64,000 nt of DNA from Chloroflexota bacterium (GCA_016223105.1 JACRPR010000072.1:7982-71981), one strand, 5' to 3'; shown: positions 3,345-58,988, counted from the first letter of the stretch. The notes: generated by a model not told the origin, from the letters alone. Program-made: numbers and translations.

Positions 3345-5650
3345 AATTGCGAATCGCGATCCTGGTTTTTAGCGCGCTCGCGTTGATCTCGATCAGCCGC
3401 GCGCACGCGCAAACCGCGAACCTCTCGCACGCGCCCGCGCTCGTCGTCTCGCCGACCGGTCCCTTCACCACGATTCAATCTGCGCTCGATGCCGCGCGCC
3501 CGGGCGATCACATTCGCGTCGAGCGCGGCGTGTACGCCGGTCCGATTATCGTCACCAAATCAGTTACGCTCGAAGGCGAGAATTTTCCGGTGATTGACAA
3601 CGGCGGCGATGGCACGGTCGTTACGCTCGACGCACCCGGCGCGATTTTGCGCGGCTTTGAATTGCGCGGCAGTGGCGTCGAACCGGATCGCGATCACTCC
3701 GGCATCGCAGTCAACGCGTCGCGCGTGATCGTCGAAAACAATCGCTTGCGCGAAGTATTGTTCGGAATTTTTGTCGCGAAGGCGAGTGATGTAATCGTGC
3801 GCGGGAACGATATTTCAAGCAAATCCGAGTACGACACCGGACGCCAGGGCGACGCGATTCGCTTGTGGTACAGCCCGCGCGCCGTCGTCGAAAATAATTA
3901 CGTGCATCACGCGCGCGATCTGATCGCGTGGTACGCGTCCGATGTGATCATTCGCAATAATCGCGTCGAGCATAGCCGCTACGGCGTGCATCTGATGTAC
4001 TGCGACCATGCGGTGATCGAACACAATCGCATCTTCGATAATTCGGTCGGCATTTACACAATGTACTCGAACGATATTCTTTTGCGCGAAAATTTTATTC
4101 GCGGCACGCGCGGACCGAGCGGTTACGCGCTCGGCTTCAAAGACGCGGACAATGTGCGCGCGACGAACAATGTGCTCGTGGACAATCGCGGCGGATTTTT
4201 TCTCGACAACACGCCGGTTACGCCGCAAGGCGAAGGATTGTTTCGCGACAACATTCTCGCGTTCAACGATGTCGGCGCGATTTTGATGCCGGCGGTGCGC
4301 GGCGCGAATTTTGAACACAACACCTTTTGGGAAAATGTCGAGCAGGTCGCGATTCAAGGAAGCGGCAAACTTGTCGGCAATCACTGGAACGAAAATTTTT
4401 GGAGCGATTATGCGGGCTACGACGCGAACGGTGACGGGCAAGGCGACCTGGCTTATCGGTCGGATCGTTTCTTTGAAGGAATGGCGGATCGCATCCCGAC
4501 ATTGCGCGCGCTGATTTACAGTCCGGTCGCGCAAGCGATTGAATTTGCCGGCTCCGCGTTCCCGATTGTGAAACCACAACCGAAAATGAGCGATCCAAAA
4601 CCGGCGATGCAAGCCGCGCCGATTCCTGGTTTTGCCTTGCCGACGCGCGATGGCGCGGGCGCGATGACCGGCGCGGCAATCGCGTTGTTATTGTTCGGCA
4701 TTGTGTCCGGCGCGTTTTCTGTCATTGCGAGCAAAGCGAAGCAATCCCCAACCGAGACCCGAAGGGTTTTCGGAAACCCTTCGGGTCTGTCCGCGTCCGT
4801 GCGCGTGGAAAATTTTTCCAAGCAGTACGGCAAGGTGCGCGCGATTGAAAACGTTTCGTTCGACGCGCGACCGGGCGAAGCATTGGCATTGTGGGGCGCA
4901 AACGGCGCGGGCAAAACAACTTTGCTCAAAGCAATCCTGGGATTGATTGATTATCGCGGCAAAATTCTGGTCGCCGATTTCGACGCGGCGCGCGCGGGAA
5001 AACAAGCGCGCGCGAACATCGGTTACGTGCCACAAGAAGCGACGTTCTACGATCTCAACGTACAAGCAACGCTCGAATTTTACGCGCGCCTCAAAAAAGC
5101 GGATCCCGCGCGCGTCCCGGTTTTGCTCGAACGCGTCGGACTCGCGGAACATGCGCGCAAACCGGTGCCCGCGTTATCGGGTGGACTCAAGCAACGACTC
5201 GCGCTCGCGGTCGCGCTGTTGAGCGATCCGCCGATTTTACTGCTCGACGAGCCGACCGCGAATCTCGACACACGCGCGCGGCGCGATTATCTCGCGCTCT
5301 TGTCCGCGTTGCATCACGAAGGCAAGACGTTGATCTTTGCGTCGCATCGCATCGAAGAAGTCGAAACGCTCGCGGATCGCGTGTTGATGATCGAAGCCGC
5401 GCAACTCGCCGAGATCATAACGCCGGAAGAATTGCGCGCGCGCCTCGCGACCGAAATCGAAATGACATTGTGGGTTGACGACGCGCAACGCGTCGCCGCG
5501 CGCGATTGTCTCGCGAATGCCGGGTTCGATCCGCGCGTCAACGGGCGCGGCACGGTGATTGTGCGCGTGCGCGCGGAACAAAAAATGCGCGCGTTCGATC
5601 TGCTGAATGAGTGCGGGGTCACGATCAAGAATTTCGAGATCGAGAATTAG
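3341..5650 (+). CDS. nosD-nosF: NosD::NosF fusion: periplasmic beta-helix Cu-maturation protein, TM helix, then ABC ATPase
   Basis: A single 769-codon frame. Signal peptide MKLRIAILVFSALALISISRAHA and a NosD-like repetitive beta-helix body. TM segment MTGAAIALLLFGIVSGAFSVIA. NosF-like ATPase with Walker A GANGAGKT, signature LSGGLKQR and Walker B LLLDEP. Confidence 0.85.
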   Translation: MKLRIAILVFSALALISISRAHAQTANLSHAPALVVSPTGPFTTIQSALDAARPGDHIRVERGVYAGPIIVTKSVTLEGENFPVIDNGGDGTVVTLDAPGAILRGFELRGSGVEPDRDHSGIAVNASRVIVENNRLREVLFGIFVAKASDVIVRGNDISSKSEYDTGRQGDAIRLWYSPRAVVENNYVHHARDLIAWYASDVIIRNNRVEHSRYGVHLMYCDHAVIEHNRIFDNSVGIYTMYSNDILLRENFIRGTRGPSGYALGFKDADNVRATNNVLVDNRGGFFLDNTPVTPQGEGLFRDNILAFNDVGAILMPAVRGANFEHNTFWENVEQVAIQGSGKLVGNHWNENFWSDYAGYDANGDGQGDLAYRSDRFFEGMADRIPTLRALIYSPVAQAIEFAGSAFPIVKPQPKMSDPKPAMQAAPIPGFALPTRDGAGAMTGAAIALLLFGIVSGAFSVIASKAKQSPTETRRVFGNPSGLSASVRVENFSKQYGKVRAIENVSFDARPGEALALWGANGAGKTTLLKAILGLIDYRGKILVADFDAARAGKQARANIGYVPQEATFYDLNVQATLEFYARLKKADPARVPVLLERVGLAEHARKPVPALSGGLKQRLALAVALLSDPPILLLDEPTANLDTRARRDYLALLSALHHEGKTLIFASHRIEEVETLADRVLMIEAAQLAEIITPEELRARLATEIEMTLWVDDAQRVAARDCLANAGFDPRVNGRGTVIVRVRAEQKMRAFDLLNECGVTIKNFEIEN
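4721..4749 (+). repeat. Family C half-element (GTCATTGCGAGCAAAGCGAAGCAATCCCC) inside the nosD::nosF linker
   Basis: Same motif as the left arm of the 79-bp element at 19355-19433. Translated here as VIASKAKQSP. Confidence 0.7.
4755..4788. repeat. Palindrome family P copy (AGACCCGAAGGGTTT-tcgg-AAACCCTTCGGGTCT), in frame in the nosD::nosF linker
   Basis: 15-bp perfect arms with a 4-nt loop. Translated as ETRRVFGNPSGL. Confidence 0.85.
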
Positions 5651-5727
5651 GGGTTGGAAGTTGGAAGTTGGAAATTAGAGATTGGATTGTCGCGCGAGGC
5701 GCATCCAGCATCCAACGTCCAACTTCA
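5651..5727. repeat. Word-repeat hairpin (GGAAGTT/GGATTGT words) between nosDF and nosY
   Basis: GGTTGGAAGTTGGAAGTTGGAAATTAGAGATTGGAT ... ATCCAGCATCCAACGTCCAACTTC. Confidence 0.7.
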
Positions 5728-5737
5728 AGGAATTACA

Positions 5738-6565
5738 ATGGAATGGCAACTCACCTGGACAATCGCGCAACGCGAATTGCGCGAGGCGTTGAAAAATAAA
5801 TGGTTGTGGTTTTACGCACTCGCGTTCGCGGGACTCGCGCTCGCGTTGTCGCAAGCCGGCGTGGCGTCGGCGGGGTACGCGGGCTTGGGCGGATTCGGGC
5901 GCACGGCGGCGAGTTTGATCAACGCGTTGTTGTTGTTCGTGCCGTTGATGGGCTTGAGCGTCGGCGCGGGCGCGCTCGCGGGAGATCGCGAACGCGGCAC
6001 CTTGTTGTACTTGCTCGCGCAACCGGTGAATCGCGCGGAAATTTTTTTCGGCAAAGCGCTCGGCGCGATGCTCGCGCTCTTCGCCGCGCTCGGGCTGGGA
6101 TTTGGATTCGCGGGGCTGGGTCTCGCATCGTCCGGCGATGGCAACGCGTTCGCGTATTTATCGCTCGCCGGCTATTCGCTTCTGCTCGCGCTCGTGTCAC
6201 TCGGACTCGGTTTCATCATCAGCGCGCTCACGCGCAAAGGCGCGACCGCGGCGGGCGCGGCATTGATCGCGTGGCTCGTCCTGGTTTTCTTTGGCGACCT
6301 CGGCGTGATGGGCGCGGCAGTTTCGTTTCGTCCGACCGCCAGCGCGTTGCTCGCGGTGATGCTCGTCAATCCCTTACAAGTATTCAAACTCGCGGCGATC
6401 TACAATTTGCGCGCGACGCTCGACACACTTGGCTCGGTGGGGCAATACGCGGATTATGAATTCGGCGCGGCGTTGCCGTTTATCTTGTTCGGTTTGCTCG
6501 CGACCTGGATCATCGCGAGTTTCGGCATCGCGTTCGCACTCTTCAATCGGCGCGGCGACCTATGA
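5738..6565 (+). CDS. nosY: NosY, ABC-2-type permease of the NosDFY complex
   Basis: ATG 5738 (AAGGA at 5727-5731); the longer 5654 start lies within the repeat hairpin. Polytopic membrane protein, MEWQLTWTIAQRELREALKNKW..., positioned after nosF. Confidence 0.8.
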   Translation: MEWQLTWTIAQRELREALKNKWLWFYALAFAGLALALSQAGVASAGYAGLGGFGRTAASLINALLLFVPLMGLSVGAGALAGDRERGTLLYLLAQPVNRAEIFFGKALGAMLALFAALGLGFGFAGLGLASSGDGNAFAYLSLAGYSLLLALVSLGLGFIISALTRKGATAAGAALIAWLVLVFFGDLGVMGAAVSFRPTASALLAVMLVNPLQVFKLAAIYNLRATLDTLGSVGQYADYEFGAALPFILFGLLATWIIASFGIAFALFNRRGDL

Positions 6566-7053: not shown

Positions 7054-7104
7054 TCAGGTTGCATCGGACACCAATCACACATATAATTTATTTCGGAGGA
7101 AAAA

Positions 7105-7496: not shown

Positions 7497-7542
7497 AGAC
7501 CCGAAGGGTTCGCTTTGCGAAACCGCTTCGGGTCTCTTTTTT
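7497..7542. terminator. Family P palindrome (degenerate copy) acting as a convergent-gene terminator
   Basis: AGACCCGAAGGGTT-cgctttgcga-AACCGCTTCGGGTCT followed by CTTTTTTATTT. Lies between the cytochrome c stop (7491) and the stop of the minus-strand gene (7541). Confidence 0.7.
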
Positions 7543-9208
7543 ATTTCACGCGAAATTTGCCGCGTTGTGCGAAATGCGAATTGATGTAGAGTTCAATCGC
7601 GTACTCGCCGGGATCGAAAACGAATGTGTCCGTGTACCCCGGGCTCATCAAGCGATGCGCCGCGCCGGTCGCATCCAACTCCCAGGGCACGATCAGTCGC
7701 CACGACGGGTCCTCCGCGCCGTTGATGTACACTTTGAAAATGACCTGGTCGCCCTTTTTCATTCCCGCGTAATCGAACAACGCCGCGATCTCAACCGTGC
7801 CGTATTCAAATTCAGTGTCCTCCGCATAATCGGTAATGTTGCCTTTGGCGTCGTACTCCGGTTCGCCAAACGTAAACGCACCGATTTTCGCGGTGAGCGA
7901 TCCGACCGGCGGTTTGCCGGTGTACTCGAGCGCGACCGCAAGCCCTTTGAGTTGCGCGATCAGCGACTGCGCGATGGGGCGCGCGAGATCCGCGTTCGCG
8001 ATTTTTGCGCGCGGCGGTTCGCCTGTGCCGGTCGCGATCACTTGCAACAAATCATCCAGGTCAATCGCCGCGGTGTCGAGCGCCCACCACAAATTGTACG
8101 GCGGTTCTTTCCCGGCAGATTTGGCGTCCGCGACCTGGTTCGCGGCGGCGTTCATCCCTTCCACGTACGTCGCGGACGCGTCGGACGATTTGCCGGACGC
8201 GAGGAGCGCGAGCGCGAGATTGAAGCGAATCCATCCCTCGTTCGGATTTTCTTCGAGCGCGGCGCGATTCAAATCAATCGCGTTATCCAAGCGACCGAGC
8301 ATATAGTACGACCACGCGAGATTCCCGGCGATGTGCGCGCTCTTCGCATCCAACGCGCGCGCGCGTTCGTAACTCGGCACCGCCGCCGCGTAATCGCCCA
8401 ACTCGGCGTACGTATCCGCGCGATCCACGAGCGCGCTCGTGTAATCGGGCGCGGCTTGGATCGCGCGATCAAATTCCGCGATCGCTGGCTTGTGCAAACC
8501 TTGATGCGCGAGTCCGATGCCGCGCGCGTATGCCGGAATCGCGGCGCCGCGTTCGCGCAAATCCGGCACGGGTTGAATCAACAAAATGCCCGCCCACCCA
8601 ATCGCGACAAATGTAACGACAATGCCGGTCGCAGAAAAAATGACGCGCGCCGCCGCGCCGGAAATCAAGCCCGCCATACCGAGCAGAAACAACGCGACCG
8701 CGAGCAACGTGAGATGAATGATGTACGTGTTCGCTTTGTAATCCCACGCTTCTTTAACTGCGGTCGCGGCTTTGAATTTTTCGGTCAGTTCGGTGATCTC
8801 GACCAAGTACGTTTCGGCTTCGTACTTGGCAACGTTCAGATCGCCTTTCGCGCGATCAAAGTACGGCGGCGCGAGCAGGGGCGAAAGTTTTACGATTTTA
8901 TCGCGGAGCGCGGTGTACCGGCGCGCGGCATCCGGTTCGCCGCGTTTCGTCGCCGAGTCCGCGAGGATGCCGAGTTCGTACCATTGCTGATACGCTTTGT
9001 TGTAATCGTAATTCACGCGCGCGTCGCCGCTGACCTTGCGTCCGAACGCTTCGAGCGCGTAACGTTTGCTGTCACGATTCGCGCGATCATCGCGTTGCGC
9101 CGCGTCTGCTTGCAAGAACGCGATGATCGCCGCGAGCGCGGTGATCGTCGCGATCAAAACCGCGATGATTTGTTTGCCGCACCCGGTTTGGGAAGATGAT
9201 TGACTCAT
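7541..9208 (-). CDS. Membrane protein: TM, long helical region, 2 TM, TPR repeats, C-terminal beta-rich domain
   Basis: ATG 9208 (AAGGA upstream); the longer 9277 start is rejected. TPR-like repeats (AIAEFDRAIQAAPDYTSALVDRADTYAELGDYAAAVPSYERALDAK...). Function unknown. Confidence 0.6.
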   Translation of the reverse strand: MSQSSSQTGCGKQIIAVLIATITALAAIIAFLQADAAQRDDRANRDSKRYALEAFGRKVSGDARVNYDYNKAYQQWYELGILADSATKRGEPDAARRYTALRDKIVKLSPLLAPPYFDRAKGDLNVAKYEAETYLVEITELTEKFKAATAVKEAWDYKANTYIIHLTLLAVALFLLGMAGLISGAAARVIFSATGIVVTFVAIGWAGILLIQPVPDLRERGAAIPAYARGIGLAHQGLHKPAIAEFDRAIQAAPDYTSALVDRADTYAELGDYAAAVPSYERARALDAKSAHIAGNLAWSYYMLGRLDNAIDLNRAALEENPNEGWIRFNLALALLASGKSSDASATYVEGMNAAANQVADAKSAGKEPPYNLWWALDTAAIDLDDLLQVIATGTGEPPRAKIANADLARPIAQSLIAQLKGLAVALEYTGKPPVGSLTAKIGAFTFGEPEYDAKGNITDYAEDTEFEYGTVEIAALFDYAGMKKGDQVIFKVYINGAEDPSWRLIVPWELDATGAAHRLMSPGYTDTFVFDPGEYAIELYINSHFAQRGKFRVK

Positions 9209-10365: not shown

Positions 10366-10402
10366 CAAAAACCCGAAAGGTTTTCGAAAACCTTTCGGGT
10401 TT
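10366..10402 (-). terminator. Family P-like palindrome with U-tract, terminator of the FKBP gene
   Basis: AAACCCGAAAGGTTTTCGAAAACCTTTCGGGTTT, followed on the minus strand by TTTTGTTT. Lies 8 nt after the stop at 10410. Confidence 0.7.
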
Positions 10403-10409
10403 ATCGCTT

Positions 10410-10802
10410 TCATTTCACATCCAACAACTCGACTTCGAACACGAGCGTCGCGTTTGGTGGAATCACACCGCCCGCGCCGCGCGCGCCGTAACCCAGTTCC
10501 GGCGGAATCGTCAATTTGCGTTTGCCGCCGACTTTCATTCCGGCGACGCCTTGATCCCAGCCCTTGATCACTTGCCCCGCGCCCAGCACAAACGTGAATG
10601 GTTCTTTGCGATCATACGATGCATCGAATTGTTTGCCATCGGTCAATGTGCCGCGATAATGGACCGTAACGCGATTACCGACTTTCGCTTCCGCGCCGGT
10701 GCCGATTTGCAAATCCTGGATCACCAATTGATTTGGATTCGCCGGCGCGGAACACGCGACAACCGTGACCAGGATCGCGATCAATCCGAAGAATTTTTTC
10801 AT
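10410..10802 (-). CDS. FKBP-type peptidyl-prolyl cis-trans isomerase, lipoprotein
   Basis: [17 protein letters not shown] signal/lipobox. Complete FKBP domain ending ...[27 protein letters not shown]. Confidence 0.88.
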
Positions 10803-10836
10803 CGCGTTATCCAACCTCTAACAATTCGACTTCGAA

Positions 10837-11088: not shown

Positions 11089-11104
11089 TTTGATCTCCTT
11101 GGAA

Positions 11105-11180
11105 TTTAGATGTTGGAAATTGGAGGTTAGAAGTTGGAACGCGCAATCCAACTTCCAACTTCTAACATCCAACATCCAAT
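11105..11180. repeat. Word-repeat hairpin (GGAAGTT/GGATGTT words) downstream of metK
   Basis: GATGTTGGAAATTGGAGGTTAGAAGTTGGA-acgcgca-ATCCAACTTCCAACTTCTAACATCCAACATC. Confidence 0.75.
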
Positions 11181-11181
11181 T

Positions 11182-12387
11182 TTACAGACCCGCTTCCGCG
11201 CGAATCGCTTCCACCTTGTCCATCACTTCCCAGGGCGCGTCAATATCGTGGCGACCGAAATGTCCGTACGCCGCGGTCGGTTGAAAGATCGGTCGGCGCA
11301 AATTCAAATCGCGAATGATCGCCGCAGGGCGCAGATCGAAATGTTTGTTCGCGAGCTCGACGATTTTTTGATGCGGAATTTTTTCCGTGCCGAACGTTTC
11401 GACCATCACCGAGAGCGGGCGCGCGACGCCAATCGCGTATGCGACCTGGACTTCGAGGCGTTCCGCGAGTCCGGCGGCGACCAGGTTTTTCGCGACGTAA
11501 CGCGCCATATACGCGCCAGAGCGATCCACCTTCGTCGGGTCTTTGCCGGAGAACGCGCCGCCGCCGTGCCGCGCGATTCCGCCGTACGTGTCCACGATAA
11601 TCTTGCGCCCGGTCAACCCGGCATCGCCAACGGGACCGCCGATGTTGAATCGCCCGGTCGGGTTCACAAAGTATTTTGTTTTCGCGTCGAGCAGATGTGG
11701 CGGGATGATCATTTTCATCACTTGCTCGATCACATCGTCCTTGATTTTTTGTTGCGTGACATTGTCGAGATGCTGGGTCGAGATCAACACCGTGTCCACG
11801 CGCACCGGTCTGCCGTGCGCGTACTCGACCGTAACCTGGGATTTGCCATCGGGTCCGAGGTACGGCAACGCGCCGTTCTTGCGAACTTGCGCGAGTCGCT
11901 TGACGAGTTGATGCGCGAGCGAAATTGTGAGCGGCATATATTCCGCGGTTTCGTTGCACGCGAATCCGATCATCATGCCTTGATCGCCCGCGCCGATCTT
12001 GTCGATCGGATCGCCGCCGCCGTCGCGCACTTCGAGCGCGTCGTTCACGCCTTGTGCGATGTCGGGCGATTGCTTTTTGATCGCGGTTAAAATTCCGGCG
12101 GTCTTCCAATCGAGCCAGTATTTCGAATCGTTGTAGCCGATTTGTTCGAGCGTTTTTTGCACAACCTCGTACGGATTGAACGACGCGGTCGTCGTGATTT
12201 CGCCCATCACCGCGACCAAGCCGCCGCTCGCCGCCGCTTCGCACGCGACGCGCCCCATCGGGTCTTGCGTGTAAATCGCGTCGAGCACGCCGTCGGAAAT
12301 TTGATCGCACACTTTATCGGGATGCCCTTCCGTCACCGATTCCGAAGTCAAATACAATTGTGATGCGGACATGAAAGTAGTACTCAT
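11182..12387 (-). CDS. metK: S-adenosylmethionine synthetase
   Basis: [27 protein letters not shown] and [19 protein letters not shown] motifs. Confidence 0.96.
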
Positions 12388-12406
12388 TTATTTGCTCCTC
12401 ATTTTT

Positions 12407-12467
12407 GATTTCAAATTTCAAATTTCAGATTGATGAATCTGAAATCTGCAATCTGAAATCTGAAATT
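12407..12467. repeat. Word-repeat hairpin (GATTTCA/AATCTGA words) between ahcY and metK
   Basis: GATTTCAAATTTCAAATTTCAGATT-gatga-ATCTGAAATCTGCAATCTGAAATCTGAAAT. Confidence 0.8.
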
Positions 12468-14530: not shown

Positions 14531-14564
14531 AGACCCGAAGGGTTTTCGAAAACCCTTCGAGTCT
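14531..14564. repeat. Palindrome family P copy, intercistronic
   Basis: AGACCCGAAGGGTTTTCGAAAACCCTTCGAGTCT, between the kinase stop (14568) and the V4R start (14506). Confidence 0.85.
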
Positions 14565-17307: not shown

Positions 17308-17535
17308 AAAAAAAAATCTCTCCGCGCAAGAGAGAGAACGTCAAAACACGCGTCTCATCTCCCAAGCCAAAGCACAGCGGCTTGCCGGAATTGGCACCGA
17401 TTTAGTTGGATAGTTGATTAGTTGGATAGTTGGTTAGTTGAATGTCAACTATCCAACTATGAAACTATATAACTATTGCACTACCGGTTGCCGAGGTTTC
17501 ACAGGGCCGATCCCTCCACCTCTCTGGATGAGTGT
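17308..17535 (-). promoter_or_regulatory. SAM-I (S-box) riboswitch with an intrinsic terminator, 5' of mtnA
   Basis: Minus-strand RNA: CUCAUCCAGAGAGGUGGAGGGAUCGGCCCUGUGAAACCUCGGCAACC-[~95-nt P3]-GGUGCCAAUUCCGGCAAGC...GGGAGAUGAG. This is followed by UCUCUC-uugcgcg-GAGAGA and U9. Confidence 0.88.
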
Positions 17536-17559: not shown

Positions 17560-17588
17560 TTTATAGCACAAGCGAAATGTTTTGTCAA
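17560..17588 (-). promoter_or_regulatory. Sigma-70-like promoter for the riboswitch-mtnA unit
   Basis: Minus strand TTGACA (17583-17588), 17-nt spacer, TATAAA (17560-17565). Confidence 0.5.
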
Positions 17589-19903
17589 TTTGAAATTTGA
17601 ATCGTGGTGAGCGTGATGTGATCGTCATTGTTCACCGGCAAACGCGCGCCGCCATTCGCGCGATACACGCCGACAAAAATTTTATACGCGCCGGGTGAAA
17701 GATCGCGCGGGATAATCAACGCGTACTCGTCCGCGACAATTTCGCCCGCGTCCCACAATGAAGTTGGATACGCGCCGCTCTGCGGCTGATCATCTTTTTG
17801 CGCGATGATTTTGCCGGTCGCGTCAACGAGATGCATGAACACGGTGTACTCTTGATCTATCGCGCCGCGCGCTTGCCAAAATAATTTCACGCGCAATGAT
17901 TCGCCATCGCGCGCGACCGAATGTCCGACAAGCGCGAGTTGATCCGCGAATTCATAGCGCGCCGGATTTTCGATTTGCACACGCGCTTGCCCAGCGATTT
18001 TGAAGCGCGCGAGCGTCGGCGTGATCGCGTTCCTGCGCGGATCGCGCGCGACCAGGTTTTCGAGCGGCACGCGGCGATAGAGCGTTACGTCAATCCGTCC
18101 GCCGCCCGGTCCGCGCGCGTCGCGCGATAACGGCACGCGATATTCGTCCGCGATAATTTCGCCGACCTGCCACAATCGCGTCGGATACAAACCGCGACCG
18201 GGGAACGCATCCCAGCGTCCGATCACATCACCACGCGCGTCGAGCAAGCGAAGCCCCACCGAAAAATCTTCCGCGATGCGTTCACGCGCGCGCCAATAAA
18301 TCGTGATCGGCAATTCGCCACCGGGCGCAACCGATTTTTGCGCGAGCGCGTAACCGATCAATTCGATCTGATCGTCGAAAATAATTTGCGTCGGATTTGG
18401 CACGCGCGCTTCATCGGAAAAACGCGCGGGCAAAGTGTACGTGGGCGCGATGAGCGTGAAAGGGGCGAGCGCGGCAAAAGTTAAAAGTAAAAAGGTAAAA
18501 ATAAAAAGTAATCCGTAATGCGTGATGCGTAAAATCTGAAATCTGAAATGTGAAATCTGAAATCCGCTCAGCCCGTAGACAAACAAAACTGCCACCGCGC
18601 TGATTGCCGGAAAAATCAGACGACCTTGCGATGCCATCGTGAGCCACGTCCAACGCACCAGCGAGAGATTGATCAGAATGAACCACAGCGCGGGCAACGC
18701 GATCAAACCGGGCAACGCGCGGCGAAAAATTCCGATCACCAAACCAATCAACGCGATCAGCGTGAACGCATCGAGAAGTGTGTACACAATTTCCGGCGCG
18801 ATGATGTTGACGCCGCCGAAATTGCCCCAAAACGAAATGCGAAATCCTTGCAGTTCGCCGAGCAAACTCGCGAACGAAACCGGCGTCGCGCGCCCACCAG
18901 CAATCGCGACCCAAACATTGAACGCTAGCGGATCGTCGTACAGCATCCAGTTGCGCGCGTACCACCAGAACGCGAGCGCGACGACGAGCGCGGCGCAAAC
19001 AAAACTGCCCTTGATAATTTCGAGTGGGTGAGCGGGTGAGTGGGTGAGTGGGAGAATTGCTCCCCCTCTCCCTCTCTTCCCCTCTCCCACTCGGTTTCGC
19101 CATAATAGATACGCGAACACAATCGCCGCGACACCGAGCAAACCCAGGTTACTAATTTTCGTGAGCGCGCCGAGACCCAGCACGATCCCAAGAATGACAA
19201 ACCGTTGCATCGTCGCACCACGCGTAACAAGTCGCGTCATCAGCAACAGCGCGAGCGTCGCGAGCATCGTCGCGAGGTTGTCATTGTTCACCGACGCGCT
19301 GATGAAAATAAACATCGGATTGCACGCGACCAGCGCGGCGGCGAATGCGGGAATGTCATTGCGAGCGAAGCGAAGCAATCCCCACCGCGCGGTGGAGATT
19401 GCTTCGTCGCCAAGGTCGCTCCTCGCAATGACAATTTCGCGCGCGAGCGCGTAGGTCAGCGCGACGGTGAGCGCGGAAAATATAATCGAGAGGAACCGGA
19501 TGAGGTGAACCGCGAGCGCGGTATTATGCCACGGAAAACTTTCCGCGTTCGTGTGGACGATCAAATTCTTGTTGCCAAAAACCAGGGGGATGCCAATTTT
19601 CGCATGCGGGTTGAGCCACACGCGCTCCGGCAAATCGCGCGCGTCAATCCAAAATGTCGCGAGCGCGCTGATCGCATAATACAGCGGTGGCTGTCCGCCC
19701 TCTTGCTCCCACAACGTTTTCACATTCGGGTCTTGGATCGGCAATCCATTCCCGGTCGCGAGATGTTGGATGAACGGATAATGCCAAATCTCATCGCCCG
19801 CTTCAAAAATCGGCGTGAGGATCGAGTACGTGATCGCAAGCGCGAGGAACGCGACCAGGATCAAAATCAGCGCGCGATTATTTGCCCACATAGATCGTTT
19901 CAA
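17585..19903 (-). CDS. GT-C fold membrane glycosyltransferase (GT39/ArnT/PMT-like), paralog 1, with two C-terminal beta-sandwich repeats
   Basis: 772 aa, more than 10 TM helices, first-loop EAGDEIWHYP acidic motif. The C-terminus carries two ~130-aa repeats (YWRA...DFSV / FWQA...EYTVFMHLVD...). Contains several in-frame repeat-derived segments. Confidence 0.7.
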   Translation of the reverse strand: MKRSMWANNRALILILVAFLALAITYSILTPIFEAGDEIWHYPFIQHLATGNGLPIQDPNVKTLWEQEGGQPPLYYAISALATFWIDARDLPERVWLNPHAKIGIPLVFGNKNLIVHTNAESFPWHNTALAVHLIRFLSIIFSALTVALTYALAREIVIARSDLGDEAISTARWGLLRFARNDIPAFAAALVACNPMFIFISASVNNDNLATMLATLALLLMTRLVTRGATMQRFVILGIVLGLGALTKISNLGLLGVAAIVFAYLLWRNRVGEGKRGRGGAILPLTHSPAHPLEIIKGSFVCAALVVALAFWWYARNWMLYDDPLAFNVWVAIAGGRATPVSFASLLGELQGFRISFWGNFGGVNIIAPEIVYTLLDAFTLIALIGLVIGIFRRALPGLIALPALWFILINLSLVRWTWLTMASQGRLIFPAISAVAVLFVYGLSGFQISHFRFQILRITHYGLLFIFTFLLLTFAALAPFTLIAPTYTLPARFSDEARVPNPTQIIFDDQIELIGYALAQKSVAPGGELPITIYWRARERIAEDFSVGLRLLDARGDVIGRWDAFPGRGLYPTRLWQVGEIIADEYRVPLSRDARGPGGGRIDVTLYRRVPLENLVARDPRRNAITPTLARFKIAGQARVQIENPARYEFADQLALVGHSVARDGESLRVKLFWQARGAIDQEYTVFMHLVDATGKIIAQKDDQPQSGAYPTSLWDAGEIVADEYALIIPRDLSPGAYKIFVGVYRANGGARLPVNNDDHITLTTIQISN
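18481..18565. repeat. Word-repeat segment (AAAAGTA, GATGCGT and AATCTGA words) inside GT-C paralog 1
   Basis: TTAAAAGTAAAAAGGTAAAAATAAAAAGTAATCCGTAATGCGTGATGCGTAAAATCTGAAATCTGAAATGTGAAATCTGAAATCC, translated as FQISHFRFQILRITHYGLLFIFTFLLLT. Confidence 0.7.
19022..19093. repeat. Word-repeat hairpin (GGGTGAG / CCCTCTC) inside GT-C paralog 1
   Basis: GAGTGGGTGAGCGGGTGAGTGGGTGAGTGGGAGAATTGCTCCCCCTCTCCCTCTCTTCCCCTCTCCCACTC, translated as GEGKRGRGGAILPLTHSPAHPL. Confidence 0.7.
19355..19433. repeat. Family C 79-bp hairpin element inside GT-C paralog 1
   Basis: GTCATTGCGAGCGAAGCGAAGCAATCCCCACCGCGCGGTGGAGATTGCTTCGTCGCCAAGGTCGCTCCTCGCAATGAC, translated as ...SDLGDEAISTARWGLLRFARNDI. Confidence 0.85.
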
Positions 19904-34810: not shown

Positions 34811-34957
34811 TTGGAAATTGGAAATTAGAAATTGGAAGTTGGAAGACGTGATACGTGATGCGTGATAATCTCACGCATCACGCATCACGTTTTACGTTTT
34901 ACGTTTTACGTTTTACGTTTTACGTTTTACGTTTTACGCTTTACGCTTTACGTTTTA
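34811..34957 (-). repeat. Composite intercistronic element: (ACGTTTT)x10 tandem, a GATGCGT-word hairpin and TTGGAAA words
   Basis: Ten 7-nt units at 34887-34956. Hairpin ACGTGATACGTGATGCGTGA-taatc-TCACGCATCACGCATCACGT at 34846-34890. TTGGAAATTGGAAATTAGAAATTGGAAGTTGGAAG at 34811-34845. The substrate-binding-protein stop at 34955 lies within it. Confidence 0.85.
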
Positions 34958-37172: not shown

Positions 37173-37227
37173 TGATGCGTGATGCGTGAAAATTATTCAC
37201 GCATCACGTTTTACGTTTTGCGATTTA
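37173..37227 (-). repeat. ACGTTTT/GATGCGT composite element abutting the ATPase stop codon
   Basis: TGATGCGTGATGCGTGAA-aatta-TTCACGCATCACG followed by TTTTACGTTTTGCGATTTA. The stop at 37211-37213 lies inside it. Confidence 0.8.
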
Positions 37228-38902: not shown

Positions 38903-39880
38903 TCATGTCGTACGCCAATTCCAACACGCGACGCGATGCCCGCTCGCAATCTCTTCCAGTTCCGGCTCATCGCGTTTGCACCGCGCGTCCGCGCGCGGAC
39001 AGCGCGGATGAAATTTACACCCGCTTGGCAATTCGATCAAGTCCGGCGGCGAACCTGGGATCGAAGTCAAATCTTCTTTCGCGCCTTGAAGCGTCGGCAC
39101 CGCGTTGATCAAGCCAATCGTGTACGGATGCGCGGGCGTTTTGAACGTCGTCGTAACATCTGCAAATTCGACGATTTTGCCGGCGTACACCGTCGCGACA
39201 CGATCGGCGAGTTCGGCGGCGAGCGACAAATCGTGCGAAATAAAAATCAACGAGAAATCGAGTTTGCCGCGCAATTCTTTCAGCACGTCCATAATATTGC
39301 GTTGCGTCAGAATGTCGAGCGCGGTCGTCGGCTCATCGAGAATCAAGAGTTGCGGTTCGAGCAGTAAGCCGAGCGCGATCAGCACGCGTTGCCGCATGCC
39401 GCCGGACAATTCGTGCGGAAACGATTTCCACACGCGTTCCGGATCGAGCCGGACGAGCGTGAGCAAATGTTCCGCGCGTTCTTTCAGCGCGCGCCCTTGC
39501 AAATAGTTATGCGCGCGCGCCGTGTCGCCGAATTGATCCGCGATGCGTAAAACCGGGTTGAGCGAGTTGAGCGCGGATTGAAACACCATCGCGCACTCTT
39601 TCCAACGAAACTCGCGGAGGGCTTTGCCCTTCAGCGTGAGCGCGTCAATCGTTTTATTGTCGCGATGATACAGCGCATTGCCCTGCGTGATCTTCGCGGT
39701 ACTCGGAAGCAATTGCACCACGCCCAAGCCGAGCGTCGTTTTGCCGGAACCGCTTTCGCCGATCAGCGCGAGCGCATCGCCACGCGCAACGTCGAAGGAC
39801 ACGTTGCGAATCGCGCGCACCTTGCCGCGCCGCGCGGCGTATTCGATGGATAAATTTTGAACAGATAAAGTTGGAGGCAT
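38903..39880 (-). CDS. ABC transporter ATP-binding protein (OppD/DppD-like)
   Basis: ATG 39880; the upstream extension is repeat-encoded. Walker A GESGSGKTT, signature LSGGMRQR, Walker B LILDEPTT. Confidence 0.85.
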   Translation of the reverse strand: MPPTLSVQNLSIEYAARRGKVRAIRNVSFDVARGDALALIGESGSGKTTLGLGVVQLLPSTAKITQGNALYHRDNKTIDALTLKGKALREFRWKECAMVFQSALNSLNPVLRIADQFGDTARAHNYLQGRALKERAEHLLTLVRLDPERVWKSFPHELSGGMRQRVLIALGLLLEPQLLILDEPTTALDILTQRNIMDVLKELRGKLDFSLIFISHDLSLAAELADRVATVYAGKIVEFADVTTTFKTPAHPYTIGLINAVPTLQGAKEDLTSIPGSPPDLIELPSGCKFHPRCPRADARCKRDEPELEEIASGHRVACWNWRTT

Positions 39881-39968
39881 AGTTGGATGGTTGGATAGTT
39901 GGGTAGTTGGGTAGTTGAATAGTTGCGTGGTTGGAAGAATTATCCAACTATCCAACTATTCAACTATC
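39880..39968. repeat. Word-repeat hairpin (GGATAGTT/GGGTAGTT words)
   Basis: ATAGTTGGATGGTTGGATAGTTGGGTAGTTGGGTAGTTGAATAGTTG ... TTATCCAACTATCCAACTATTCAACTATC. Confidence 0.75.
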
Positions 39969-39971
39969 TAA

Positions 39972-42549: not shown

Positions 42550-42625
42550 TATGGGACGCGGATGAGCGCGGAGGAACGCGGATAAAAAAGAATAATCCGC
42601 GTTCGTCCGCGTTTGTCCGCGTCCA
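42550..42625. repeat. Family R ~76-bp hairpin element (copy 1 of 3)
   Basis: TATGGGACGCGGATGAGCGCGGAGGAACGCGGATAAAAAAGAATAATCCGCGTTCGTCCGCGTTTGTCCGCGTCCA. Confidence 0.85.
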
Positions 42626-42627
42626 AT

Positions 42628-44496: not shown

Positions 44497-44557
44497 TAGT
44501 AAACAGTGAACAGTCTACGCACGACTGATCACTGTTTACTGTTTACTGTTGACTGAC
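44497..44557. repeat. Word-repeat hairpin (CAGTAAA/CAGTGAA words)
   Basis: GTAGTAAACAGTGAACAGTC-tacgcac-GACTGATCACTGTTTACTGTTTACTGTTGACTGAC. Confidence 0.75.
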
Positions 44558-52703: not shown

Positions 52704-52740
52704 AAAAACCCGAAGGGTCTGAGAGACCCTTCGGGTTTTT
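52704..52740 (-). terminator. Family P-like palindrome with flanking A/T runs, terminator of the liv operon
   Basis: AAAAACCCGAAGGGTCTGAGAGACCCTTCGGGTTTTT, 7 nt after the stop at 52747. Confidence 0.8.
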
Positions 52741-52746: not shown

Positions 52747-53457
52747 TCACAATCCCAGGTACGCCTTGCGCACACTTTCCATCTCGCGCACCTGTTTCGC
52801 TTCGCCCTCCGTTTCGATGCGTCCGTTTGCCATCACGTACGCGTAATCACTCACGGCGAGCGCCATTTGCACATTCTGTTCGACCAGGAGCATCGTATAT
52901 CCTTCGGCTTTCAACTTGCGAATCACTTCGAACAGATTCAACACGAGGAGCGGCGAAAGACCGAGCGAGAGTTCATCGAACATGAGAATCTTGGGCTTGC
53001 CCATCAACCCGCGCGCGATCGCGAGCATTTGTTGTTCGCCGCCGGAAAGCGTGCCGGAAACTTGCGCGCGGCGTTCTTTCAAACGCGGCAAAAGTTCAAA
53101 GACCCATTCGAGATTTTTTTTGTACTCGCCGCGCGCGCTTCCCGGCGTCGCGCCCATTTCCAAATTTTCTTGCACGGTCATATCGGTAAAGAGTTGGCGA
53201 CCTTCTGGCACGAGCACCAACCCCATCTGCGCTTTGTCGTGCGGCGAAAGTTTGGTTACGTCGCGGCTATCGAAATGCACACTGCCTTGCATCGCCGGCA
53301 GTAAACCCATCACCGTGCGGAGAAGCGTCGTTTTGCCTGCGCCATTCGAGCCGACGAGCGAAGTCAATTTCCCCGGTTGCAATTTCAGCGAAACGCCCCA
53401 CAGGATTTGCACTTGCCCGTATCCCGATTCAACGTTTTTGATTTCAAGCGTAGCCAT
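52747..53457 (-). CDS. livF: Branched-chain amino-acid ABC transporter ATP-binding protein
   Basis: Walker A GSNGAGKTT, signature LSGGEQQM, Walker B MFDELSLGL. Confidence 0.85.
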   Translation of the reverse strand: MATLEIKNVESGYGQVQILWGVSLKLQPGKLTSLVGSNGAGKTTLLRTVMGLLPAMQGSVHFDSRDVTKLSPHDKAQMGLVLVPEGRQLFTDMTVQENLEMGATPGSARGEYKKNLEWVFELLPRLKERRAQVSGTLSGGEQQMLAIARGLMGKPKILMFDELSLGLSPLLVLNLFEVIRKLKAEGYTMLLVEQNVQMALAVSDYAYVMANGRIETEGEAKQVREMESVRKAYLGL

Positions 53458-56036: not shown

Positions 56037-56059
56037 CTCTGTAGTTGCATAGTGAAATA

Positions 56060-56119
56060 GTTCGATAGTGCGATAGTTAAAAACTATCGCACTATCGAAC
56101 TAGGAAACTATCGCACTAT
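56060..56119. repeat. Word-repeat hairpin (CGATAGTG words) between the liv substrate-binding-protein gene and livH
   Basis: GTTCGATAGTGCGATAGTT-aaaa-AACTATCGCACTATCGAAC followed by TAGGAAACTATCGCACTAT. Confidence 0.8.
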
Positions 56120-57507
56120 TTGCGAAGTTGTCCGTCCGCCGATTTGGCTTCGAGCGGCCAAACGATGTTCGTGATCAATTTGCCGGCAGAATCTTTCTGC
56201 CACTGCATATAAACCATATCGTGCGCGGTCTGCTTGCCGTGCGTCTTGGCATCGGTGCTGAATTTGACGACGCCGTAGAACGTCATCAAGTTCATCTTGT
56301 CGAGCGCGGCGACAATTTTCGCGGGATCAACACTGTCCGCATCTTCAATCGCTTTTTGGAGAATCAAACCCTGAGCGTAACCGCCGGCGGAGTGGTACGA
56401 CGGCGTATCTTTGTATTTCGCGACGTACGCGTCGGTGAACGCTTTGACACTCACACCATAGTAGGGGATGTTCGCGGCTTTGGCGGATTCCGCGCTGTAC
56501 GTCACTTGGGGTTCCCACTGGCTGGGTCCGATGATGTACTGCGCGGCATCGCCGATATCTTTAAAGGTCGGTTCCGGCGGCGCGACGAGCAAAGAGACAA
56601 AGCGCACCGGAATCTTTTTCTCGTAAAGTTGTTTGGCGAAGGTCGTGCCATCGGCAAAGTGACCGCCGCCCAAAATCGCGTCGGGGTTGGTCGCGCTGAT
56701 CTTGTTGATGAACGGAGAGAAATCGGTCGCGCCGGTATCGTACCCCTCGAACATCACGACGTTCAACCCTTTGCTTTCCGCGTACGGTTTCAGCGCGTTC
56801 GCGACCGAGGTCGAGAAGGCATCTTTTTCGTACACGATCGCGATCTTTTTCGCGGTCGGGTCAATCTTCATCAACATATCTGCCGCGCCGGTGAGATAGC
56901 GACTCGCGGGCGTGTACAATTGGAACGTGTTCTTGAAACCTTGTTCCATCGTTACATCGTCCGCCGCGCCGGCGGTGATCATCACTTTGCCGTTCTGTTC
57001 ACCGACGACTGCCGCGGCGCGCGCGAGACCGCTACTGTATGGGCTGAGGAGGAAATCGGCTTTGTCTTCGTTGATGAGTTTGGCGTAGAGCGCTTGCACG
57101 CGATCGGTCTTACTCTCATCATCGTAGAATTTCATTTCCGGCATATAGACCGTGCCGTCTTTCAACTTGATGCCGCCGGCTTTCGCCACATCATCAAGCC
57201 ACAACTGTAAACCTTCGACCTGTTTCTTTGAAGCGACTTGTTGCGCGCCGGTCTGGGATGCGGTGAAACCGATCAAAAGTTTCTTTGCCGCGACGGGTGG
57301 TTTAGTCGCGGCGGCGGGCGGCTTGGTTGCTTCAGGCGCTTTGGTCGCGGCGGCGGGCGCAGAAGTCGCGGCGACCGGCGCGGTCGTTGGCGCGGGCGCT
57401 TTGGTGGGGGGCGCGGATGTGGGTGCCGCCGTCGGCGCGGCGCACGCGGTCAGGATCAGCGCAGTCAATAGAACGCCGATCCACAACAATCGGGGAAACT
57501 TGCTCAT
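56116..57507 (-). CDS. Type-1 periplasmic-binding-fold (LivJ/K-like) substrate-binding lipoprotein
   Basis: ATG 57507 (GGAG upstream). Lipobox LTAC followed by a ~55-aa Pro/Thr/Ala tether. Confidence 0.8.
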   Translation of the reverse strand: MSKFPRLLWIGVLLTALILTACAAPTAAPTSAPPTKAPAPTTAPVAATSAPAAATKAPEATKPPAAATKPPVAAKKLLIGFTASQTGAQQVASKKQVEGLQLWLDDVAKAGGIKLKDGTVYMPEMKFYDDESKTDRVQALYAKLINEDKADFLLSPYSSGLARAAAVVGEQNGKVMITAGAADDVTMEQGFKNTFQLYTPASRYLTGAADMLMKIDPTAKKIAIVYEKDAFSTSVANALKPYAESKGLNVVMFEGYDTGATDFSPFINKISATNPDAILGGGHFADGTTFAKQLYEKKIPVRFVSLLVAPPEPTFKDIGDAAQYIIGPSQWEPQVTYSAESAKAANIPYYGVSVKAFTDAYVAKYKDTPSYHSAGGYAQGLILQKAIEDADSVDPAKIVAALDKMNLMTFYGVVKFSTDAKTHGKQTAHDMVYMQWQKDSAGKLITNIVWPLEAKSADGQLRK

Positions 57508-57673
57508 CGTCTTCTTCTCCTTTTTCTTTTCGCGCATCTTGGCGATTTTTGGAAATTCATTCCATTGGCACAGGCATTGGGTTGCGAACCCGCGTGTGGC
57601 GCAATCATCACCTCGCTGTGATTAAATTTGCAAGGAAGGCAGTGGAGACGAAAGGTTAAAATATCTTAATGCG

Positions 57674-57702
57674 ATTATATCCGCTAGATTCAAATAAATC
57701 AA
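57674..57702 (-). promoter_or_regulatory. Sigma-70-like promoter of the liv operon
   Basis: Minus strand TTGATT (57697-57702), 17-nt spacer, TATAAT (57674-57679). Implies a ~160-nt leader. Confidence 0.5.
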
Positions 57703-57707
57703 ATTCA

Positions 57708-58988
57708 TTACGCCAACAACGCGAATGGCTCTTCAATCAGATTCGCGAGCGCGTCGAGAAATTGCGCGGCGCGCGCGCCATCCACAACACGATGATCGCT
57801 CGAAAGCGTGAGCGTCAGCATCGGGCGCACGGCGGGCTGACCCTTGATCGCGATCACGCGCTCCGCGATGCGTCCGACCGCGAGGATCGCGGCTTGCGGC
57901 GCGTTGATGATCGCGCTGAACGCGTCCACGTTGTACATTCCCAGGTTCGTCAGCGTGAATGTGCCGCCCGCGATGTCCGCCGGTTTCAACTTGTTCGCGC
58001 CCGCGCGTTCCACAATATCTTTGCGGCGCGTCGCGATTTCACCAATCGCAAGCGCGTCCGCGCGATGCACAACCGGCACGATCAAGCCATCCTCAAGCGC
58101 GGTCGCGATGCCGATGTTGATCGCGTCGTTGAGTTTGATTGTGTTGTCCATCCAGCTCGCGTTCACGCGCGGATGATCACGCAACGCGATCGCGATCAGC
58201 TTGACGAGCAAATCCGTGTACGTCGGTTTGACGCCGGAGCGTTTCGCGATGATCGGCGCGATCCGCGCGCGCAATTCGACGAGCGCGGTCGCGTCCACAT
58301 CGCGCGTGAGAAAAAAGTGTGGCACGGTTGTCCAACTTGTCGTCATTCGTTCCGCCATCACGCGCCAGACGGTGGAGATGTCAGCATCCTGAGCGGAGCG
58401 AAGCGGAGTCGAAGGATGCGGTGATCCGGCGCGAGCAGGGGCGAGGGTGTAAGTCGCCGACATGTTTAACACATCATTCGCGATGATTGCGCCGTCGGGA
58501 CCAGAGCCGCGCAACGTTGCAAGATCAATGCCGCGTTCACTCGCGAGACGACGCGCTTTGGGTGACGCGGGGACGAGACCCGAAGGGTTTGGCAAACCCT
58601 TCGGGTCTTTGTTTAGGTACGCGATCACATCCGCCTTCTCAATTCGTCCGCCGGTCGGCTTCACGCGCGCGAGATCAACGCGATGCTCCTCCGCGATTTT
58701 GCGCGCGACCGGCGACGCGCTCAGACCCGAAGGGTTTACAAAACCCTTCGGGTCTTCAACAATCAGCGCGATCGTTTGCCCGACCGGGATCACATCCCCT
58801 TCGCGTGCGGTGCCGTTCGAAAGTACACCGCTCGTGGTCGCTTCGATCTCGACGGTAACTTTGTCCGTCTCGATCTCCATAATCGGCTCGCCCTTGATGA
58901 CCTGGGCACCTTCGCTTTTGAGCCAGCGTAAAATTTTTCCGGTATCCTGCGCCATTTCGAGAGCAGGCATGATGAATTCGGTAGTCAT
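57708..58988 (-). CDS. Dihydrolipoamide acyltransferase (E2) of a 2-oxoacid dehydrogenase complex, with two peripheral-subunit-binding domains
   Basis: ATG 58988. Lipoyl domain IETDKVTVEIE. Two PSBDs (PVARKIAEEHRVDL..., SPKARRLASERGIDL...). Catalytic domain with DHRVVDG. Confidence 0.88.
   Translation of the reverse strand: MTTEFIMPALEMAQDTGKILRWLKSEGAQVIKGEPIMEIETDKVTVEIEATTSGVLSNGTAREGDVIPVGQTIALIVEDPKGFVNPSGLSASPVARKIAEEHRVDLARVKPTGGRIEKADVIAYLNKDPKGLPNPSGLVPASPKARRLASERGIDLATLRGSGPDGAIIANDVLNMSATYTLAPARAGSPHPSTPLRSAQDADISTVWRVMAERMTTSWTTVPHFFLTRDVDATALVELRARIAPIIAKRSGVKPTYTDLLVKLIAIALRDHPRVNASWMDNTIKLNDAINIGIATALEDGLIVPVVHRADALAIGEIATRRKDIVERAGANKLKPADIAGGTFTLTNLGMYNVDAFSAIINAPQAAILAVGRIAERVIAIKGQPAVRPMLTLTLSSDHRVVDGARAAQFLDALANLIEEPFALLA
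58387..58412 (-). repeat. Short repeat (reverse complement of 32486-32511) inside the E2 linker
   Basis: TCCTGAGCGGAGCGAAGCGGAGTCGA, translated as STPLRSAQD. Confidence 0.75.
58576..58608. repeat. Palindrome family P copy, in frame in an E2 linker
   Basis: AGACCCGAAGGGTTTGGCAAACCCTTCGGGTCT, translated as KDPKGLPNPSGL. Confidence 0.88.
58723..58755. repeat. Palindrome family P copy, in frame in an E2 linker
   Basis: AGACCCGAAGGGTTTACAAAACCCTTCGGGTCT, translated as EDPKGFVNPSGL. Confidence 0.88.

Follow-up and report, generated by a model that had tools for sequence, protein, structure and literature searches.

Seven copies of a short GC-rich palindrome were found in a 64,000-nucleotide stretch of DNA from a Chloroflexota bacterium (GCA_016223105.1, JACRPR010000072.1:7982-71981; hereafter the window), some of them behind genes and others in frame inside genes. 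These hairpins are very probably dispersed palindromes of Chloroflexota resembling the REP sequences (repetitive extragenic palindromes) and REP doublets forming hairpins (REPINs) of other bacteria, with a HUH single-tyrosine (Y1) transposase of the REP-associated tyrosine transposase (RAYT) type as the proposed cognate enzyme. Loci outside the window are referred to below by L numbers.

The complete unit has the form A-GACCCGAAGGGTTT-(3-4 nt)-AAACCCTTCGGGTC-T, is 33-34 nt long and possesses a 15-bp stem; it can be written as 5'-A GACC-N5-GGTTT, a loop of 3-4 nt, and AAACC-N5-GGTC T-3'. Each arm of 15 nt is in addition nearly self-palindromic (ACCC-GAA-GGGT). The seven copies are as follows.

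Copy 1: 4755-4788, 34 nt, no strand assigned; AGACCCGAAGGGTTT-TCGG-AAACCCTTCGGGTCT, perfect 15-bp stem with a 4-nt loop, -27 kcal/mol.
Copy 2: 7498-7536, no strand assigned; AGACCCGAAGGGTT-CGCTTTGCG-AAACCGCTTCGGGTCT, enlarged loop and one bulge, -26 kcal/mol.
Copy 3: 10369-10402, minus strand; AAACCCGAAAGGTTT-TCGA-AAACCTTTCGGGTTT, a compensated G>A variant.
Copy 4: 14531-14564, no strand assigned; one stem mismatch, without a T-run.
Copy 5: 52706-52738, minus strand; AAACCCGAAGGGTCT-GAG-AGACCCTTCGGGTTT, an isomer with AAA/TTT outermost, -29.6 kcal/mol.
Copy 6: 58576-58608, 33 nt, minus strand; perfect stem with a 3-nt loop, peptide DPKGLPNPSGL.
Copy 7: 58723-58755, 33 nt, minus strand; perfect stem with a 3-nt loop, peptide DPKGFVNPSGL.

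An earlier reading of the window (the initial annotation) had proposed such a seven-copy family, and each copy was confirmed at its place by direct reading of the window sequence, with none expected by chance; the consensus proposed there describes a real family, but the complete unit is longer than was written, with a 15-bp stem and an outer A and T. The full-unit pattern has an expectation of 0.00 in the 64-kb window (100 shuffles), as has the consensus with up to 3 mismatches, which recovered copies at 4756 and 14532. If 1 mismatch is allowed, the 10-base arm core CCGAAGGGTT occurs 20 times against 3.2 expected, and 14 of these 20 matches make up the seven pairs. No unpaired half-site was found in the window: all seven left arms (ACCCGAAGGGT) and all seven right arms (ACCCTTCGGGT) are paired, always with the left arm first. 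As RNA, the seven copies fold with -23.6 to -29.6 kcal/mol (z-scores of -5 to -7.5 against shuffles), and no Rfam family matches any of them.

Scanning species-representative genomes for the exact 26-base pattern placed the palindrome at no fewer than 106 unrelated loci in dozens of metagenome-assembled genomes, nearly all labelled Chloroflexota. The taxa include Anaerolineae, Ardenticatenaceae and Ca. Leptovillus (Ardenticatenia), Thermoflexia, Caldilineaceae, and Ca. Aquidulcis (Limnocylindria). Whether further copies exist elsewhere, a question on which the initial annotation had staked its reading, is thus answered strongly in its favour, at least 106 loci lying beyond the window, whose source genome is not among them. 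Exact copies have unrelated flanks and variable loops, and only the outer A (-1) and T (+1) are conserved (96-98%); among those listed the loop measures 3 nt in 68 and 4 nt in 35, and neither a target-site duplication nor a guide tetranucleotide was found at them. The exact palindrome is also encountered on contigs binned to other phyla, namely L013, L064 (Rhodothermales), L023 (Burkholderiaceae) and L053 (Bathyarchaeota), which could reflect bin contamination or horizontal transfer. Literature searches for this sequence and for palindromic repeats of Anaerolineae or Chloroflexi returned only primers or general REP papers, in which the family is not described.

The 113 listed exact copies were placed with respect to mechanically called open reading frames (ORFs) of at least 100 amino acids, with the following result.

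At the 3' end of an ORF: 54 of 113, 15 of these between convergent genes.
Inside an ORF: 37 of 113 (33%), a mechanical upper bound.
Only on the 5' side of an ORF: 12 of 113.
Unplaced or at the locus edge: 10 of 113.

The share of copies within ORFs therefore ranges from 16 of 113 (14%), those verified by Pfam, to the mechanical upper bound given above.

The exact palindrome is one member of a larger superfamily, of the form AGACC-N5-GGTYT / ARACC-N5-GGTCT. When hairpins of 12 or more pairs were counted across 815 kb, a single architecture emerged, with compensated arm cores including CCGAAGG (the core of the window subfamily), CCTAAGG, CTGACAGG, CTTCGAGG, CTGGAAGG, CCGCAGG and CCCAAGG. At locus L030, seven copies within 5 kb bracket an ORF of 214 amino acids (4538-5182), which contains one copy in frame. 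The product carries the motifs YHIYNRGN, NHFHF and YIHRNPQ and has 1168 homologues at E<=1e-5, many of them named 'REP element-mobilizing transposase RayT' by JGI and some carrying PF01797. In an alignment of 35 homologues, N57, H58 and H60 (N-H-x-H) and Y144 are invariant. A variable loop in many of these proteins consists of translated palindromes, for example, KTLRVSxTLRV, QTLKVSxTFRV and QTPRVxETLGV. The family profile matches a single PDB entry, 4ER8 (E. coli TnpA-REP). An AlphaFold (AF2) model of the protein reached a pLDDT of 91 and a pTM of 0.87, with the palindrome-encoded residues forming a low-confidence surface loop; its top Foldseek match is again 4ER8 (E=1e-7, TM 0.69), followed by IS200/IS605 TnpA. 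By this predicted fold, the associated protein is a RAYT-like HUH-Y1 transposase of the TnpA-REP type.

The association of gene and repeat is not confined to one locus. Superfamily palindromes bracket the RAYT-like gene in all five genome loci (L030, L111-L114). In 80 metagenome loci, the 150 nt next to the gene hold a palindrome of this architecture on the upstream side in 43 of 78 cases and on the downstream side in 51 of 77, and 38 of the 80 have a palindrome inside the RAYT gene. At least 10 arm subfamilies are found at RAYT loci, mostly one per locus, the in-gene copy included, and different between loci; palindrome and gene thus co-vary. Copies with the CCGAAGG and CCTAAGG cores occur together beside RAYT in L030 and L113, both of which hold a RAYT gene bracketed by its repeats (a REPtron) of the CCTAAGG type.

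Restriction-modification genes also lie beside the RAYT-like gene in all five genome loci. Eco57I/MmeI-type enzymes or their fragments adjoin RAYT in four, and in L114 RAYT separates the hsdS and hsdR genes of a type I system. The coordinates of these genes are given below.

L030: 767-3826, restriction-modification genes.
L111: 1768-2613, restriction-modification genes.
L112: 1563-2184, restriction-modification genes.
L113: 4706-7765, restriction-modification genes.
L114: 736-7906, restriction-modification genes.

Four of the window copies stand behind genes, which were assigned by Pfam. Copy 2 lies 6 nt past the stop codon of a cytochrome c gene (7491) and before the stop of a convergent TPR gene (7541); its loop is enlarged by a CGC-TTT-GCG mini-stem on an unchanged outer stem, with CTCTTTTTTATTT directly after, and a T-run occupies 7537-7549. 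Copy 3 is located downstream of an FKBP gene (10410-10814, minus strand), has the minus-strand tail TTGTTT, and is listed by a simple terminator scan of the window. Copy 5 is found downstream of an ABC ATPase gene (52747-53457, minus strand) with A5 and T5 runs on its flanks, and is shaped like a putative bidirectional terminator. Copy 4 lies 4 nt past the pfkB stop (14568) and before a V4R-domain gene. The placement and T-runs of copies 2, 3 and 5 and the intercistronic position of copy 4 agree with the initial annotation. A hairpin followed by a U-tract is present at copies 2, 3 and 5 and not at copies 1, 4, 6 and 7, and this anatomy suggests termination at the former three. Like intrinsic terminators, these are GC-rich hairpins directly after stop codons with T-runs next to them, and copy 5 shows a symmetric arrangement of A-run, hairpin and T-run. 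Unlike intrinsic terminators, whose hairpins are locus-specific, the hairpin here is a shared repeat, and the four window copies without a T-run cannot be classical terminators. In L109, a relative with 88% identity, the orthologue of copy 2 is an imperfect hairpin of the CCTAAGG type.

The remaining three copies are in frame in two genes, as had been claimed.

57708-58988, minus strand: 2-oxoacid dehydrogenase E2 gene with a lipoyl domain, two E3-binding domains and a catalytic domain, host of copies 6 and 7.
3341-5650, plus strand: gene for a fusion of NosD, a transmembrane (TM) segment, a linker and NosF (769 amino acids; product 100% identical to MBI5650719.1), host of copy 1.
4722-4752, plus strand: a second palindromic element, unrelated to copy 1, represented by its left half (GTCATTGCGAGCAAAGCGAAGCAATCCCCA) and lying immediately 5' of that copy in the linker.

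In E2, whose likely start is M13 of the ORF by comparison with orthologues, copy 7 is in frame in linker 1, which leads from the lipoyl domain to the first E3-binding domain, and copy 6 in linker 2, which joins the two E3-binding domains, so that each directly precedes one E3-binding domain. The layout with two such domains is conserved in E2 orthologues while the linkers are hypervariable. An origin of the two copies by tandem duplication of the element together with an E3-binding domain was considered and rejected: the layout is conserved in orthologues without the element, and the two domains have diverged while the palindromes are identical except for their loops. In five of five orthologues, a palindrome in linker 1 ends 4-6 nt before the same ASPVA codons and belongs to one of three types.

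Window and L195, E2 linker 1: AGACCCGAAGGGTTT.
L107 and L196, E2 linker 1: AGACCTGGAAGGTCT / AGACCTTCCAGGTCT.
L197, 10236-10267, E2 linker 1: GTAG-AGACGTTGCG-TGCA-CGCAACGTCT-CTAC, a double foot on a stem that starts with AGAC.

Linker 2 varies with the orthologue: its palindrome is a complete unit, a unit whose loop is enlarged, a hybrid, or a remnant of the right arm. The copies thus persist at these sites while their sequence is replaced, both arms always changing together. The neighbours of the E2 gene (region 57708-60437) are an M24 peptidase gene and an operon for a branched-chain amino-acid ABC transporter, with no E1 genes beside it; in the relative L197, E1 alpha and beta genes are located upstream of the peptidase gene.

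The linker that carries copy 1 in frame is cytoplasmic and connects the TM helix of the NosD part to the ABC ATPase (NosF) part. Fusions of the same architecture, with a hypervariable cytoplasmic linker placed between the NosD part and its TM helix on one side and an ABC ATPase on the other, are found across Chloroflexota. The idea that the element made the NosD-NosF fusion was rejected, as hundreds of Chloroflexota proteins of about 780 amino acids share the architecture with or without it; the initial annotation was thus right about the in-frame copy at this junction, and the junction itself is a conserved fusion that the element did not make. The half element at 4722-4752 is translated as VIASKAKQSP. 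In L109 the corresponding linker holds a different palindromic element, GTCACCCTGAGCGAAGCGAAGGATCTC...GAGATGCTTCGCTCCGCTCAGCATGAC, at about 4680-4745; the window linker keeps just the left half of this L109-type element, followed by copy 1. The half copy belongs to a repeat of a third type, palindromic and about 89 bp long (GTCATTGCGAGCGAAGCGAAGCAATCCCCACC-GCGC-GGTGGAGATTGCTTCG...CTCGCAATGAC), of which the L109 linker carries another subfamily (GTCACCCTGAGCGAAGCGAAGGATCTC...). A copy of this type in the window (19352-19440) lies inside an ORF of 772 amino acids of the PMT_2 family (17585-19903, minus strand). TRMNADER and similar peptides in the NosD-F linkers of other species resemble translated tandem-unit hairpins, a class described below.

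The peptide DPKGF-x-NPSGL, which had been proposed for the element, holds for the two 33-nt copies in E2; the 34-nt copy in NosD-F gives ETRRVFGNPSGL, the first arm being read in another frame than in E2. As expected for a palindrome, both orientations yield the same peptides. Pro/Gly-rich coding is not general: it represents one frame among the three that are used, DPKGFxNPSGL, RPEGFxKPFGS and TRRVxxTLRV. No similar E2 linker peptide from non-palindromic DNA, an outcome that would have spoken against the initial annotation, was encountered among the orthologues, in which linkers with such peptides are also palindrome-encoded.

In-frame coding copies are real in other proteins as well. ORFs that span copies show a coding-like pattern of GC content at the three codon positions (GC1/2/3) and use all three frames, and the 34-nt units yield mixed reading frames. 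The copies are usually located between domains or in loops. Pfam domains are found on both sides of the copy in the same ORF in a PEP-utilising enzyme, an AIR-synthase-like protein, and BTAD-AAA-TPR and cyclase-AAA-TPR proteins, among others; in a GH2 protein they are found on one side only. Individual cases are listed below.

L090: copy before a mobile PEP-utilising domain.
L055: copy between AIRS and AIRS_C.
L037 and L018: copy between AAA and TPR regions.
L034: copy after TIR-CHAT, with domains on one side only.
L104: copy in a FliK linker, with domains on one side only.
L079: copy inside HATPase_c.
L069: copy inside an AMP-binding domain, where the PDB alignment is too gapped to delimit the insertion.
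L050: copy inside the Fpg N-domain.

Compared with MutM (1L1T), the Fpg copy is a clean 13-residue insertion at a turn. Enrichment of 33-nt copies in ORFs, to be expected of a length divisible by three, was sought and not found, the ratio of 33 to 34 nt being about 62:38 in ORFs against 65:33 overall. At L074 (6041-7474), one ORF comprises a 3-hydroxyacyl-CoA dehydrogenase part (residues 9-290) and, joined to it by a copy, an AcnX swivel-domain part (377-437); here, unlike in NosD-F, the element may have fused two genes.

Several observations weigh against a REP-like origin with a RAYT as the mobilising enzyme. The GT[AG]G or CGTC foot is absent from the listed exact copies, whose units start with AGAC; atypical feet have been reported for RAYT subclass 2.6 and class 3 (PMC6006769). 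The L030 protein matches NCBIfam REP_Tyr_transpos (NF047646) weakly and below the cut-off (27.6 bits, E=2e-6), and gives no Pfam hit with or without its insert. The 64-kb window contains no RAYT gene. Among about 85 RAYT loci, none is flanked solely by CCGAAGG palindromes, and among 120 homologues none has an internal copy of the window subfamily (TRRV..TLRV); the mobilising enzyme of this subfamily is therefore an inference. Copies of 34 nt are as common in ORFs as those of 33 nt, which simple cut-and-paste fails to explain. Finally, turnover at orthologous sites, seen in E2 linker 1 among five orthologues and, between the window and L109, at the cytochrome c terminator and in the NosD-F linker, counts in favour of the REP-like reading, but it takes the form of replacement and not of presence or absence, a pattern to which conversion or site re-use is at least as well suited as fresh insertion.

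In the mechanism proposed for REP-like palindromes, a RAYT would recognise the hairpin on single-stranded DNA, cut and rejoin it, and copies would thereby spread or be replaced; the putative single-stranded substrates of this RAYT clade would be hairpins with AGACCCTAAGGGTTT or AGACCCGAAGGGTTT, and the CCGAAGG subfamily of the window would be mobilised in trans by a RAYT of the CCTAAGG type. Selection would retain copies where harm is small or some benefit exists. Past stop codons, a 15-bp GC-rich RNA hairpin would end transcription if a U-tract follows, or would shield the 3' end of the mRNA, so that copies at 3' ends may terminate or stabilise transcripts. Survivors in coding DNA would be those in inter-domain linkers and surface loops that accommodate 11-12 extra residues. 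Stop codons are absent from all six frames of the CCGAAGG core of the window subfamily, and each in-frame insertion therefore stays open, while the RAYT-flanking CCTAAGG core contains TAA or TAG in two of three frames. Absence of stops, as read from the core itself, may explain why CCGAAGG occurs in ORFs.

That the palindromes are more than passengers, with CCGAAGG an orphan variant selected for survival in ORFs and hairpins at domain borders kept for their RNA or DNA structure, is unlikely. It draws on the single compensated change that separates the CCGAAGG core from the RAYT-flanking CCTAAGG type and removes all stop codons. Hairpins at domain borders may provide a translational pause that aids domain folding, with E2 linker 1 as a case in point, and if they are selected their supply and replacement, time and again, would be the work of the RAYT system.

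A decidedly unlikely explanation is that host hairpins arise in place by template-switch (fold-back) mutation and are then kept by selection for RNA structure, whether they terminate transcription, stabilise the mRNA or make ribosomes pause where domains meet. Such an origin would agree with the perfect palindromes of three sequences that stand 4-6 nt before the same codons in five E2 orthologues, with the retention at orthologous sites in relatives of the cytochrome c terminator hairpin and two tandem-unit hairpins, and with arm changes that are always compensated. It cannot yield an identical 30-nt stem at 106 or more unrelated loci in dozens of genomes, however, and leaves both the bracketing of the RAYT-like gene and the co-variation with it unexplained; copies within enzyme domains, at points where pausing would serve no obvious purpose, also disfavour it.

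The near-palindromic arms (6-3-6 or 7-1-7 within 15 nt) would suit two adjacent operator-like sites for a dimeric DNA-binding protein or a signal of the DNA-uptake type, a function that the spread of the unit would then reflect, and the frequent proximity of RAYT-like and restriction-modification genes could be read in the same direction. Neisseria uptake sequences also form inverted pairs, act as terminators and are tolerated in coding DNA. Unlike uptake sequences, single arms are never alone in the window; many copies are inside ORFs, and the conserved adjacent gene encodes, by its fold, a hairpin-processing HUH enzyme and not a regulator, which makes such sites very improbable here. There is even less reason to regard the units as transposable elements of the miniature inverted-repeat kind (MITEs), left behind by a DDE-type insertion sequence whose transposase moves them. 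The units are indeed dispersed palindromes without coding content of their own, and other bacterial MITEs also insert in frame (PMC5896051, PMC10969869), but 33-34 nt is far under MITE size (70-300 bp), there is no target-site duplication or conserved flank past the outer A and T, and it is a RAYT that accompanies the repeats, with no DDE transposase associated. That the units are artefacts of assembly or sequencing, for example adapter or hairpin chimeras, can practically be dismissed: all sequences are metagenome assemblies and RAYT contigs are often very short, but the identical unit occurs in assemblies from many groups and methods, reading frames are kept open, and orthologous sites in relatives and compensated subfamilies are found.

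Other hairpins are present in the window. A second class of long hairpins fills many intergenic gaps; their arms consist of short tandem units whose sequence varies from place to place, for example, CAGTAAA, GATAGTT, TGCGTGA, ATTTCCC and ACGCGGAT. Their positions are as follows.

2573-2655: tandem-unit hairpin, matching L109 2525-2566.
11103-11182: tandem-unit hairpin.
12401-12466: tandem-unit hairpin.
17403-17475: tandem-unit hairpin, coinciding with a riboswitch insertion.
34843-34900: tandem-unit hairpin.
37178-37208: tandem-unit hairpin.
39879-39971: tandem-unit hairpin.
42551-42627: tandem-unit hairpin.
44498-44540: tandem-unit hairpin.
56042-56118: tandem-unit hairpin, matching L107 3749-3791, between binding-protein and permease genes.
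59005-59058: tandem-unit hairpin.
61206-61287: tandem-unit hairpin.
63363-63410: tandem-unit hairpin.

The riboswitch is of the SAM-I class (17352-17534, minus strand, 74.7 bits), lies upstream of an IF-2B-family gene and has a 77-nt insertion at a stem tip where the consensus has 6 nt; a hairpin repeat seems to have settled in a permissive riboswitch loop. In addition, a near-perfect loopless palindrome of 62 nt (TTGTAAGGGCGAAGCATTTTTTCGCTCTGCG / CGCGGAGCGAAAAAATGCTTCGCCCTTACAA) is located upstream of nosZ (126-187) and is unrelated to the other families.

The closest known counterpart of the CCGAAGG family and its superfamily, which the initial annotation had not named, is the REP/REPIN-RAYT system of E. 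coli and Pseudomonas (Nunvar 2010; Bertels and Rainey 2011; Messing 2012, PDB 4ER8). Both have short GC-rich palindromes in high copy number, mostly at the 3' ends of genes; in both, repeats flank a single HUH-Y1 gene as a REPtron and co-vary with it, and 4ER8 is the best structural match. The REPtron layout is seen in related loci and not in the window. The Chloroflexota units differ in having ends AGAC...GTCT without a GT[AG]G or CGTC foot, and in their perfect 15-bp stem with each arm self-palindromic, like a very compact REP doublet. Their exact sequence is common to several Chloroflexota classes, while described REPs are usually species-specific, and a larger share than usual (14-33%) is found in ORFs. 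The symmetric 'double foot' REPs of RAYT subclass 2.4, with a foot at both ends, are also similar (Quentin et al. 2018, PMC6006769). A further likeness is the copy within the RAYT gene, seen here in 38 of 80 loci and lying in the low-confidence surface loop of the model. That subclass has been described mainly in Cyanobacteria and Bacteroidetes and has GT[AG]G...C[TC]AC feet (PMC6006769). The E2 linker 1 palindrome of L197 does carry GTAG-AGAC...GTCT-CTAC, and this combination of a GTAG...CTAC foot with an AGAC stem start may link AGAC-type units to GTAG-type REPs. REPs inside ORFs have been listed by Di Nocera et al. 2013 (PMC3733652). In-frame REPs, those internal to RAYT genes included, are already published.

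Palindromes inserted in genes are known from other systems. The classic case is that of the Rickettsia palindromic elements (RPEs; Ogata et al. 2000). Like the units described here, RPEs are inserted in functional genes without loss of frame, loops and linkers tolerating them; they differ in their length of 100-150 bp, restriction to Rickettsia and lack of a known transposase, whereas the present units measure 33-34 nt and add 11-13 residues. The likeness to inverted pairs of Neisseria uptake sequences extends to their double use as terminator stems and their tolerance in certain gene frames, but those sequences are mostly single 10-12-mers.

The palindromes are a new example of a known phenomenon, REP/REPIN-RAYT, and not a new kind of mechanism. 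Chloroflexota, known mostly from metagenomes, thereby gain a defined REP-type superfamily and a matching RAYT clade. The odd Pro/Gly-rich or Arg-rich 11-mers in many annotated proteins (DPKGFxNPSGL, RPEGFxKPFGS, TLRVxxTLRV) are explained, as are some assembly breaks around these genes. With its exact sequence common to several classes, the repeat could be of use as a lineage marker and for flagging contaminated bins. Finally, the site replacements in E2, in NosD-F and at the terminator offer a clean natural system that could show how REPs turn over along with their transposase and how new linker sequence is gained by proteins.

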